Assembly (NCBI GenBank): GCA_963699755.1
Contig: CAVOVB010000002.1
Span: 736,001-800,000 of the forward strand
Source of the DNA: an uncultured delta proteobacterium
Lineage (GTDB): Bacteria > Myxococcota_A > Polyangia > Polyangiales > Houyiibacteriaceae
Reading direction: 5' to 3'
Length of the DNA: 64,000 bases
Of the stretch, positions 30,963-32,968 are shown piece by piece. Made by a program: the position numbers and the translations under genes. Below the pieces are notes generated by a model. It had not been told where the DNA came from and ran no database searches. It saw only the letters and a list, made by a program, of their open reading frames with translations. Position 1 is the stretch's first letter, and each line of letters starts with the position of its first letter.

Positions 30963-31157
30963 ATGTCCAAGAATCACGCTCGAACGATCCCGCCGGAACG
31001 GCAAAGGTCACACCTCGAAAAGAAGCATGCCGAGCTCTCGGAACGCGTGGCAGCGCTGGATAGCCGCATGAGTCTCACTCCGAGCGAGGAGCTCGAGCTC
31101 CATCAGTTGAAGAAAGAAAAGCTTTGGGCAAAGGACGCCCTGCGCGACGTTGACTAG
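30963..31157 (+). CDS. small coiled-coil protein, YdcH/DUF465-like
   Basis: LEKKHAEL..LTP.EE.EL..LKKEKL..KD; SD GGAGG; followed by a terminator. Confidence 0.8.
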   Translation: MSKNHARTIPPERQRSHLEKKHAELSERVAALDSRMSLTPSEELELHQLKKEKLWAKDALRDVD

Positions 31158-31221
31158 TAGCCAGCGCCCTGCGCCGAAGTCCTAGCATCGCTCCTAATCA
31201 CCCCGCTTCGATAAACCGCGT

Positions 31222-31267
31222 GAACGGCCTGTCCCACCCGCTTTCTCCTGGGGCGGGCCGTTCTTTT
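31222..31267 (+). terminator. intrinsic terminator of the DUF465 gene
   Basis: 15-bp stem GAACGGCCTGTCCCA/TGGGGCGGGCCGTTC (two G.U pairs valid on +), followed by TTTT. Confidence 0.75.
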
Positions 31268-31304
31268 GCGTTGGGGGCCTCCCCTGAGAGCCGTTGGGGC
31301 ATTA

Positions 31305-31338
31305 AGACAAAATGGGCCACCGATCGGTGACCCATTTC
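31305..31338 (-). terminator. intrinsic terminator of the candidate sRNA
   Basis: Minus strand AAAUGGGUCACC-GAUC-GGUGGCCCAUUUUGUCU; the U.G pair is valid only on the minus strand. Confidence 0.75.
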
Positions 31339-31484
31339 AAACGAAAGAATCGATGCTACAGTCAATAAGCTAGGGCAAGTAAGCTAAGCTGGATTATCCA
31401 ATCCTTTGGAGTTAAGAACGACCCATCGCCACGCGGATGCCGGGCAAGCTGGAAGTGCGCGGCGAGGGGTCTTAAGGAAGCGAT
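31305..31484 (-). ncRNA. candidate novel sigma54-dependent small RNA (~180 nt)
   Basis: Bounded by a sigma54 promoter and an intrinsic terminator on the same strand; 15-bp 5' stem-loop (31420-31471); no ORF over 5 codons contained within the transcript. Confidence 0.7.
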
Positions 31485-31493
31485 TGGTTCCGT

Positions 31494-31510
31494 TGCAATC
31501 GCGATGCCAA
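31494..31510 (-). promoter_or_regulatory. sigma54 (-24/-12) promoter
   Basis: Minus strand TTGGCATCGCGATTGCA: GG-N10-GC with TGGCA and TTGCA cores. Confidence 0.8.
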
Positions 31511-31714
31511 CTCCAACGGCATTCAGAAACCAAGGGTTTTTGGATTGGAAACGCTTTGAGTGGGACATTTCTGTCATAGACACGCAGCCGATTGTCGCGG
31601 TTGGCACAATCAAGACTGGCGCGCGTCCGATAAGCGCACATTGTCCTACCGCGCAGGTTGAAGTGAGCGTGCCCTCCCGCGTATGATCTGAAGAACCGGT
31701 TAGGCCGGACTCAA

Positions 31715-32968
31715 ATGCCCAAGTGCCATAGCTGCGACGGAAAAGTGCTGAGGACGGACGCGTTCTGCGGCGCATGTGGCGAGCCGGTCCCCGGCGCAAA
31801 GCCCGTGGTGCCGATCTCTCGCGAGTTCAAGCTGAGCGACATGGGCAGCCCGCCAGAACGCTTGCGTGGCACGTTTCGCCCGGCGTCGGGGAGCTCGACT
31901 TCGGCGCGGGCCATGGCCATCGTCGCGGTCTCGGAGCCCGAAGTCGCCGAACCCGCAGACACCGCCCTCACCCGCACCTCGATTCGTGAGCGCGAGCCAC
32001 GAAGCGAGCCAGCCCCCGTCCTGCCCCTTCATCGAAAGAAGAACGGCGCCGAGAGCGACCGGCAGGCGGAGCCAAGGGAAGCCGAGGCGCGCGGAGGTTC
32101 GGTGCGGGCATCAGAGCCGGAGCGCTCGACGGCCGCAAGCCTTCCCAACATGCCGATTCCGCCGGGCCCGCCGATTCTCGCGTCCGATCTGCTCCGTGAA
32201 CAAATGCGGCCGTCGAGCCCCGGTGAAAAGGCACTGCGCGGCGCGACAATCGTCCTCAGCGCACTTGGTGCGCTCGGCGTCCTGCTCTTCGGTGGCATAC
32301 ATCCGTTGACATTCGTCGCCCTGGCGCTGCTGATCATGACTGCAACCTTGGCGCTCGCACCGATGTCGTATCGGGCCCGTGCGATCGCGATCTTCTTGAC
32401 CGGTTTGGTCACGACCGGAGTTGCTCTATGGCAACAGGCGCTCCAGGGCATCGCGCCAGAGGGCATGATTTTGGCCTGCGCGACGATCCTGCTCAGTGGG
32501 AGCCTGCTGTTTCGGGCATACTATCGGGGCGCGCGATTGGCGCGTGTGGCGGTGACTCTTGGTGTCCTGACCCTAGGCGCTTGGTTTCTGGTCTCGAGGG
32601 GCCATGAGAGCCTCGTGATGCTCGACGGCCATTGGCAGTCCTGGGCGCCTGCAATCACACACATGAGCTTCGGTCTGCTCGCCCTGCTCTCCCTCATGGC
32701 CTTCATGGACAACAGCACCCGTGGCGGCTCCCATGTCTGGGCCGTGGCGGTGCTGGCGCTCTATGCCGTTCACATAGGTCTTTTGGTTGCGAGCGCGCGA
32801 TGGCCGCTCAACCACGCGGCGGTGAGCATTCAGGGACCCACCGTGGCCACTATCATCGCCGGCATGGTCGGCACCATCCTTGCGGGCTTGGCTCTCGCGC
32901 AGGTCCTGGTCGCGATCTACCAAGCGACCTCGACCCGGACCCGATCGCGCGTCTCGTTCACGACTTGA
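31715..32968 (+). CDS. membrane protein: N-terminal zinc ribbon, disordered linker, ~8 TM helices
   Basis: CHSC..FCGACG; Pro/Ala/Arg-rich linker; hydrophobic C-terminal half; upstream TTGAAG-18nt-TATGAT. Confidence 0.75.
   Translation: MPKCHSCDGKVLRTDAFCGACGEPVPGAKPVVPISREFKLSDMGSPPERLRGTFRPASGSSTSARAMAIVAVSEPEVAEPADTALTRTSIREREPRSEPAPVLPLHRKKNGAESDRQAEPREAEARGGSVRASEPERSTAASLPNMPIPPGPPILASDLLREQMRPSSPGEKALRGATIVLSALGALGVLLFGGIHPLTFVALALLIMTATLALAPMSYRARAIAIFLTGLVTTGVALWQQALQGIAPEGMILACATILLSGSLLFRAYYRGARLARVAVTLGVLTLGAWFLVSRGHESLVMLDGHWQSWAPAITHMSFGLLALLSLMAFMDNSTRGGSHVWAVAVLALYAVHIGLLVASARWPLNHAAVSIQGPTVATIIAGMVGTILAGLALAQVLVAIYQATSTRTRSRVSFTT

Follow-up and report, generated by a model that had tools for sequence, protein, structure and literature searches.

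The window, a 64,000-nucleotide stretch of DNA, contains what is almost certainly a real and undescribed RNA gene of the sigma54 type. From its sequence features, the RNA is one member of a CUU-repeat class that spans the order Polyangiales and has a predicted activator. The putative activator site, the apparent spread across the order and the CUU signature are new here. No prior description was found in the literature searched, and subscription papers and the TRIC-seq supplements could hold one.

Inspection of the sequence showed an intergenic gap of 557 nt (31158-31714) between a DUF465 gene and a 417-aa gene starting at 31715. The initial annotation had claimed a complete minus-strand unit in this gap, and all of its parts were found. 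The unit begins with the sigma54 -24/-12 promoter TTGGCATCGCGATTGCA (31494-31510, minus strand), an exact GG-N10-GC element as previously described, which was retained in 37/37 genus genomes. Sites of the form TTGGCA-N6-TTGCA occur only 3 times in the whole 5.35-Mb genome. The promoter spacing predicts the +1 of the RNA at about 31483 (-), in agreement with the start near 31484 suggested before. The rpoN gene was found in the host genome by the RpoN box, a motif which we take to identify it, and 24 of the 31 matches listed for the sigma54-activator profile in this genome were strong.

The predicted RNA is ~179 nt long and contains 11 CUU triplets (31305-31483, minus strand), its ends being predicted from the promoter and the terminator. 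It starts with the unpaired 5' leader UCGCUUCCUUAA (31472-31483, minus strand; consensus GCUUGCUUAA), in which CUU-N-CUU is conserved. A 5' hairpin follows (31420-31471, minus strand), whose stem (31471-31457/31434-31420) has 15 positions with one C.U mismatch and one G.U pair and closes a 22-nt loop. This corresponds to the 15-bp stem-loop with one mismatch in the initial annotation; its proposed extension by UUAAG/CUUAA was not sustained, as it re-uses G31471, needs a bulge and is absent from the consensus structure. The loop includes the 18-mer UCCAGCUUGCCCGGCAUC (31436-31453, minus strand), identical in 37/37 genus copies, with the core GCCCGGC(A/G)U at 31445-31437 (-). The subsequent linker (31339-31419, minus strand) is variable and weakly structured and carries CUU-R(R)-CUU repeats; its indels are large and the CUU units are retained. 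An intrinsic terminator (31305-31338, minus strand), also named in the initial annotation and present in 37/37 genus genomes, completes the unit with a 12-bp consensus stem (98.9% paired; 31338-31309 in the window), freely varying loop letters and the U-rich tail UUUUGUCUU. This terminator was absent from the list of a simple terminator scanner, probably because the stem absorbs the U-run. The converging DUF465 gene (30963-31157, plus strand; PF04325, E 1.8e-8), a conserved neighbour, has its own terminator as claimed (31222-31267, plus strand; scanner matches at 31237-31264).

Two elements of the gap extend the initial annotation, namely the palindrome at 31564-31577 described below and a divergent sigma70-like promoter of the 31715 gene, TTGAAG-N18-TATGAT (31658-31687, plus strand), which lies outside the RNA unit and has both hexamers conserved across the genus. 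The 417-aa gene itself (31715-32968) matched nothing in Pfam or NCBIfam; its product has a CxxC-CxxC pattern at the N-terminus and is hydrophobic in the C-terminal half. The gene is conserved in the genus and adjoins the RNA also in genus g27.

Within the genus, the RNA is conserved in both sequence and structure. BLASTN detected it in 36/36 genus genomes and in 0/24 genomes of other families, a covariance model recovered it in 52/54 genus genomes, and promoter, loop and terminator were all present in 37/37, with RNA lengths of 156-206 nt in these 37 genomes. In the consensus structure 99.3% of 923 cells pair, whereas slid-structure controls gave 35-53%. Double changes were seen in 5/25 pairs, compared with 1.2 in shuffles and with 0/500 shuffles as high, a count that is inflated by the relatedness of the genomes. 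The 5' hairpin has 13 consensus pairs, which are 99.8% paired, 4 of them with double changes, and both stems show compensatory and G-U changes. The folding z-score of the RNA against shuffles was -3.2; the structure of the linker was not above shuffles (median z 0.14, 37 copies). CUU occurs 11 times in the RNA and 5.8 times in dinucleotide shuffles. The assignment to the minus strand was upheld by the promoter and the U-tail, and also by pairs that change from C-G to U-G or from G-C to G-U; folding energy does not tell the strands apart (z -3.20 vs -3.06). One genus copy (L093, in genome G240) has no terminator of its own, and its RNA runs straight into the end of the converging DUF465 gene.

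The absence of a credible coding sequence, noted initially, was confirmed. No conserved ORF was found among the 37 genus copies: one-base indels shift the frames, starts differ, and 1/37 has no ORF of at least 8 codons. A small ORF, a leader peptide and a dual-function RNA were therefore rejected, since the reading frame is not conserved. In Rfam 15, the window gave no match at the gathering score and the region only chance matches (E 1.4 and 6); no match was obtained for the RNA in 18 further loci, and no family matched the more distant counterparts that were tested. The RNA had initially been matched to none of 6S, SRP, tmRNA and Pxr, and the Rfam searches likewise gave none of them; a sigma54-type non-coding RNA gene distinct from these four is well supported.

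An estuary metatranscriptome gives a weak hint that the RNA gene is transcribed. A 193-nt contig covers 31304-31487 with 5 differences and 1 gap and ends near both predicted ends, in a type of data whose contigs give neither strand nor ends. Other contigs of the run, over neighbouring genes, are 177-234 nt long; an identical 192-nt contig crosses the DUF465 terminator and one contig extends 60 nt beyond the RNA terminator. The run has no contig cover at 31505-32673, and such holes are uninformative.

The likely activator of the RNA gene was deduced from conserved DNA. At 67 nt before the -24 element lies ATGACAGAAATGTC (31564-31577, minus strand), with the palindrome GACA-N4-TGTC, which is near-invariant in the genus and is a putative upstream activator site. 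GACAATC (31590-31596, minus strand), a conserved block in a 30-locus alignment, may be a second half-site. The exact motif ATGACA-NN-AATGTC was found in 70/79 family genomes (reversed control, 1), and it precedes the promoter in the homologues outside the genus too. The second conserved place of the motif overlaps or follows the stop codon of an FHA-GAF-AAA-HTH gene (G000:C1:1126766-1128589 in the host genome, G000), where it precedes a -24/-12 site for two downstream genes. It was detected at the end of this enhancer-binding protein (EBP) gene in 29/30 genus loci and in 12/20 other genomes, 10 of these with -24/-12 behind. It was not found there in 8/20, including both f17 genomes and the f16 genome, one of the 8 being cut by a contig end and another having a site visible by eye only. 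Since the site adjoins the EBP's own gene and also precedes the sigma54 promoter, the FHA-GAF EBP is the likely activator of the RNA gene. The protein is present in 195/201 genomes of the order (a tally that includes G318), and its helix-turn-helix is almost invariant. Against this assignment stands the presence of at least 20 other bacterial EBPs (bEBPs) in the genome. The pair of site and promoter occurs in 106/301 phylum genomes (control, 3), mostly before protein genes. At the end of contig C4, another activator site that looks perfect was discarded because it lies inside a broken coding region.

Several other loci with this site were inspected. The bEBP locus (L341:2267-6447, G000:C1:1126766-1130946) comprises the FHA-GAF bEBP gene, the palindrome, the second half-site, a CGGCA-N6-TTGC promoter and two uncharacterised genes, one of 162 aa without a Pfam match and one of 579 aa with CarboxypepD_reg; PilZ and CBS genes precede the locus, and lnt-like and ftsK-like genes (assigned by eye) follow it. 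Contigs C1 and C7 of this assembly contain near-duplicate rplL-rpoB regions and tRNA-Thr/Tyr/Gly/Trp clusters, and both carry a bEBP, in agreement with the 9% contamination figure of the assembly. In three genomes of families f5, f14 and f1 (L413, L458, L463), site and promoter precede a conserved gene whose C-terminus looks PilZ-like by eye and which is likely to be a member of the activator's regulon. A perfect site precedes a KdsD-type sugar-phosphate isomerase gene (by eye) in genus g142 (L316, L317), and no RNA copy was seen at this locus. Outside the order, in families f37, f48 and f54 (L570-L578), site and sigma54 promoter precede a different RNA candidate of ~70-100 nt, which starts with (G/A/C)CGGAG(A) or GCAG(G)AG, has a strong hairpin at its end and is not CUU-rich; Rfam scans of four of these candidates gave no match. 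In genus g46 (L546, L566, L567), the conserved stretch ACUUUACUUUGCAA lies between site and promoter and a Ser/Thr kinase gene, and is possibly a CUU-type leader outside the order.

Outside the genus, the covariance model gave 5 weak matches, of which 4 were true and the fifth was false, inside a coding region. In the 4 true copies a sigma54 promoter is present, and the loop CUUGCCCGGCAU sits on a stem that differs in sequence; in other genera, too, differing stem sequences still close the same loop. The pattern of promoter and loop was found in 59/79 family genomes, covering six genera (reversed control, 0), and looser patterns added a seventh genus and family f5, the core shrinking to GCCCGGC(A/G)U. 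The core of the loop is thus conserved across seven genera of the family and also in f5, and was not found in the RNAs of f3, f7, f14, f19 and f22. Similar 5' GCUUG/ACUU starts occur in other genera and families. DUF465 synteny with the RNA extends over the genus, several other genera and family f5. In family f17, 3/210 matches of the pattern were coding. Among 126 matches in metagenome, viral and phylum sequences, 56 were fumarase-type coding, 28 chance and 42 real, none of the 42 being viral. One promoter spacer pattern, which fits few homologues, gave 5 real and 11 chance matches out of 16 and is uninformative on distribution.

When the palindrome and synteny were used as baits, counterparts of ~110-700 nt with little common sequence were obtained in nine families of the order. 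The ancestral order of the locus is RNA, a small TPR lipoprotein gene on the same strand and the converging DUF465 gene. With the lipoprotein gene as bait and RNA content ignored, site and promoter lay upstream in 25/29 loci (families f1, f3, f5, f7, f14, f19 and f22; L516 left out; misses L513, L518, L519 and L521). The initial annotation had called the RNA lineage-specific, which holds for the primary sequence by BLASTN but not for the type of unit, given this synteny elsewhere. In f17, the lipoprotein bait gave site and promoter in 0/30 loci, four of them cut short, and the DUF465 bait gave the unit in 0/28; the two f17 copies examined lie at other loci.

CUU is the only feature common to all counterparts found. 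In the first 200 nt of the 25 synteny-picked loci the median was 12 CUU (range 6-18), whereas none of 52 other promoters that share the activator site had more than 7 behind it. A rank test overstates this difference, the 25 loci being kin. CUU exceeded dinucleotide shuffles at p<=0.05 in 18/25 loci; 7/25 failed. GCUU was the top-enriched 4-mer (230 vs 101 expected), and CUU spacing peaked at 4-5 nt. CUU was more often unpaired than the remaining RNA in 30/30 representatives, which were partly picked and trimmed by CUU content and in which U/C-rich triplets are unpaired partly through composition. The f8 and f17 copies had been picked from pattern matches by CUU content. The compact f8 RNA folds worse than 200/200 shuffles, and CUU-dense stretches are generally not under-folded (median z 0.31). 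The RNA gap ties for the top CUU-type motif count among 2786 intergenic strands.

Repeated unpaired motifs, free length and loss of primary sequence are marks of protein-titrating RNAs; in CsrB-type RNAs, length and copy number vary widely while the primary sequence is lost. By this analogy, we give an even chance to the proposal that the stand-alone non-coding RNA serves as a decoy for a CUU-binding protein, in the manner of CsrB and CrcZ. FHA and GAF domains have established roles in sensing phosphorylation and small ligands, and their presence in the EBP would imply that it responds to Ser/Thr phosphorylation and to a small ligand. Judging from the conserved DNA, the FHA-GAF-AAA-HTH protein would then bind GACA-N4-TGTC and open the sigma54 promoter. 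An RNA of ~180 nt would be made and end at its own terminator, as the sequence shown and, weakly, the transcript suggest. Its single-stranded (G)CUU units, 4-5 nt apart, would bind several copies of one RNA-binding protein, and the titration would free the mRNA targets of that protein, by analogy with CsrB/RsmZ and CrcZ. The partner would be neither Hfq nor CsrA: Hfq (PF17209; controls positive in 5/14) and CsrA (PF02599; controls positive in 3/14) were not found in the host genome. Of two further genomes that carry the RNA, G043 yielded no RRM protein and G341 no cold-shock protein. RRM gene leaders are not CUU-rich, and GCUU is enriched only 1.1-fold before start codons. The invariant loop of two families may be a later add-on that acts as a high-affinity site or as a module for pairing or self-pairing; its core is nearly self-complementary, which makes self-pairing possible. 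CrcZ provides a precedent, as it is made from a CbrB/RpoN promoter and is described in the consulted portions of the reports as an Hfq decoy (PMC4063720, PMC5113210).

The invariant 18-nt loop resembles a pairing seed more than a decoy element. The RNA could instead be an Hfq-independent base-pairing sRNA like Pxr or MXnc1, whose loop and pyrimidine repeats would block purine-rich ribosome-binding regions of many mRNAs, a reading that we consider possible but doubtful. A contiguous invariant loop on a covarying stem would suit such pairing, CUUCCUU runs resembling the 3' end of the 16S rRNA occur in some counterparts, CAAG shows a 1.24-fold enrichment ahead of starts, and M. xanthus is without Hfq, yet Pxr and MXnc1 pair near the SD according to the part of the preprint consulted (bioRxiv 10.1101/2025.09.11.675593). 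However, the loop's best match to a start region in one genome (-34.7 kcal/mol) falls within the range of 12 shuffled loops (-32.6 to -37.0). Perfectly antisense 12-mers lie in different genes in the 5 genera compared, except for the codons of MPGKVNP in 2, presumably a fumarase-family motif, though short or wobble seeds may exist; in the target ranking, the MPGK-start gene g1094 was 28th. In addition, the loop is missing in most families and the anti-SD triplet CCU is not enriched. A combination of both activities, in which CUU repeats would recruit a chaperone standing in for Hfq and the loop would be the seed delivered to targets, is improbable: both modules are under selection in f1 and f5 and neither Hfq nor CsrA was found in the host, but many counterparts consist of repeats without a common loop, and target prediction found none.

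It is very unlikely that the RNA is a 5' leader or attenuator of the downstream small TPR lipoprotein gene and a leftover in the genus. In most families the gene does follow the RNA, on the same strand at the ancestral locus, and a crude test called no terminator-like hairpin in 8/25 loci; however, such a hairpin was called in 17/25, at 127-697 nt. The lipoprotein gene is absent downstream in the genus (0/12), where the RNA is kept under strong selection in 52/54 genomes, so that the RNA does not need it. The g143, g141, f8 and f17 copies also adjoin other genes. That there is no functional RNA, but merely conserved DNA sites and back-to-back terminators, is hardly credible: TGCC-N-GGCA is a DNA palindrome, and transcription is weakly supported, with other contigs of the RNA run of similar length and one past the terminator, but both stems show compensatory and G-U changes, the stems that carry the loop in other genera are unrelated, and TGCC-N-GGCA is only mildly commoner between genes (19/126 sites vs 10.5% of bases intergenic). 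A reading of the loop as a DNA site found no support. Pairing between the linker and DUF465 mRNA was rejected, as the site is not kept (by eye) and the g143 copies adjoin other genes.

Returning to the decoy, a CUU-reading protein, the decoy RNA, the FHA-GAF sigma54 activator and Ser/Thr-kinase signalling might together form a global post-transcriptional switch of the Polyangiales, a third type beside CsrA-CsrB and Hfq-CrcZ, with an activator regulon that spans much of the phylum and, in other classes, includes a different short RNA candidate; this wider picture is tentative. The regulation of mRNAs in Hfq-free myxobacteria is largely open, and Pxr is the one well-studied sRNA in the literature found. 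The RNA would add a second myxobacterial class, order-wide, for which an activator and its binding site are predicted and the repeat motif is defined. With a defined CUU motif, the RNA-binding protein can be fished directly with wild-type and CUU-mutant RNA. A predicted DNA site and an initial regulon can be assigned to the near-universal FHA-GAF activator. RNAs of this kind are missed by BLAST and by covariance models, yet their promoter architecture finds them.

Among known RNAs, 6S RNA (RF00013) is similar in its length of about 180 nt. The closing stem with a central bubble is absent here, where two separate hairpins flank a variable linker, and identity with 6S was rejected for lack of both the long rod with its bubble and an Rfam match. 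The junction between zapA and the 5-formyl-THF cyclo-ligase gene is a usual 6S site, and the RNA lies away from the zapA locus. The rest of the genome gave no 6S match either, and the zapA to cyclo-ligase junction there (L040, G000:C1:1484155-1485071) is too tight for 6S RNA.

Pxr (RF01812, PxrR/Nla19) is, in the consulted portions of its descriptions, a myxobacterial RNA with a sigma54 promoter, EBP dependence, an Hfq-free host, a conserved 5' stem-loop and a terminator (PMC5684412, PMC5568312). The RNA here resembles it in having, from its sequence, a sigma54 promoter with an upstream enhancer site. Unlike this RNA, with its two helices and 156-206 nt, Pxr has ~108 nt and three stem-loops, and it lies directly behind pxrK-pxrR, a response-regulator EBP, whereas DUF465/lolA and a membrane-protein gene are the neighbours here. 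The 5' end of Pxr has a C-run loop in SL1 according to a primer table (PMC5568312), in contrast to the loop here. The RF01812 model found no match in the region at E<=10 or in the genome at E<=1, a search in which no positive control matched, and none in sets of 151 and 13 genomes, among which the M. xanthus lineage probably is not. With the model match absent and loop and neighbours different, identity with Pxr was rejected. Pxr is reported from Cystobacterineae only in the consulted parts of the literature (PMC5684412, PMC5568312, PMC8538405, PMC11928866). MXnc1 of M. xanthus, compared by description only, is likewise an intergenic sRNA candidate in an Hfq-free host; the consulted part of the TRIC-seq preprint states that M. 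xanthus lacks Hfq and that MXnc1 pairs with mrpC and pilA mRNAs (bioRxiv 10.1101/2025.09.11.675593).

Further parallels are found among protein-titrating RNAs. CsrB/CsrC and RsmY/RsmZ show poor primary conservation, variable length and repeat number and a repeated short motif, and the RNA here also repeats a short motif, with variable length and poor primary conservation. It differs from CsrB/RsmZ in that GGA is at or below expectation in 9/9 representatives, CsrA was not found, and control is by sigma54, not UvrY/GacA. CrcZ, too, carries many copies of a short single-stranded motif; its motifs are A-rich and bind Hfq, whereas the motif here is (G)CUU in a U/C-rich RNA with AAG 0-3 times per 200 nt, and Hfq was not found. 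The activator here, FHA-GAF, is encoded far from the RNA gene, again in contrast to CrcZ/CrcY, and there is no Rfam match. In the consulted portions of the reports, CrcZ/CrcY of Pseudomonas share with the RNA here a sigma54 promoter, a dedicated EBP and an intrinsic terminator (PMC4063720, PMC5113210). Many short single-stranded motifs, variable length and weak sequence conservation, the features of the protein-titrating class, were all found in the RNA described here.
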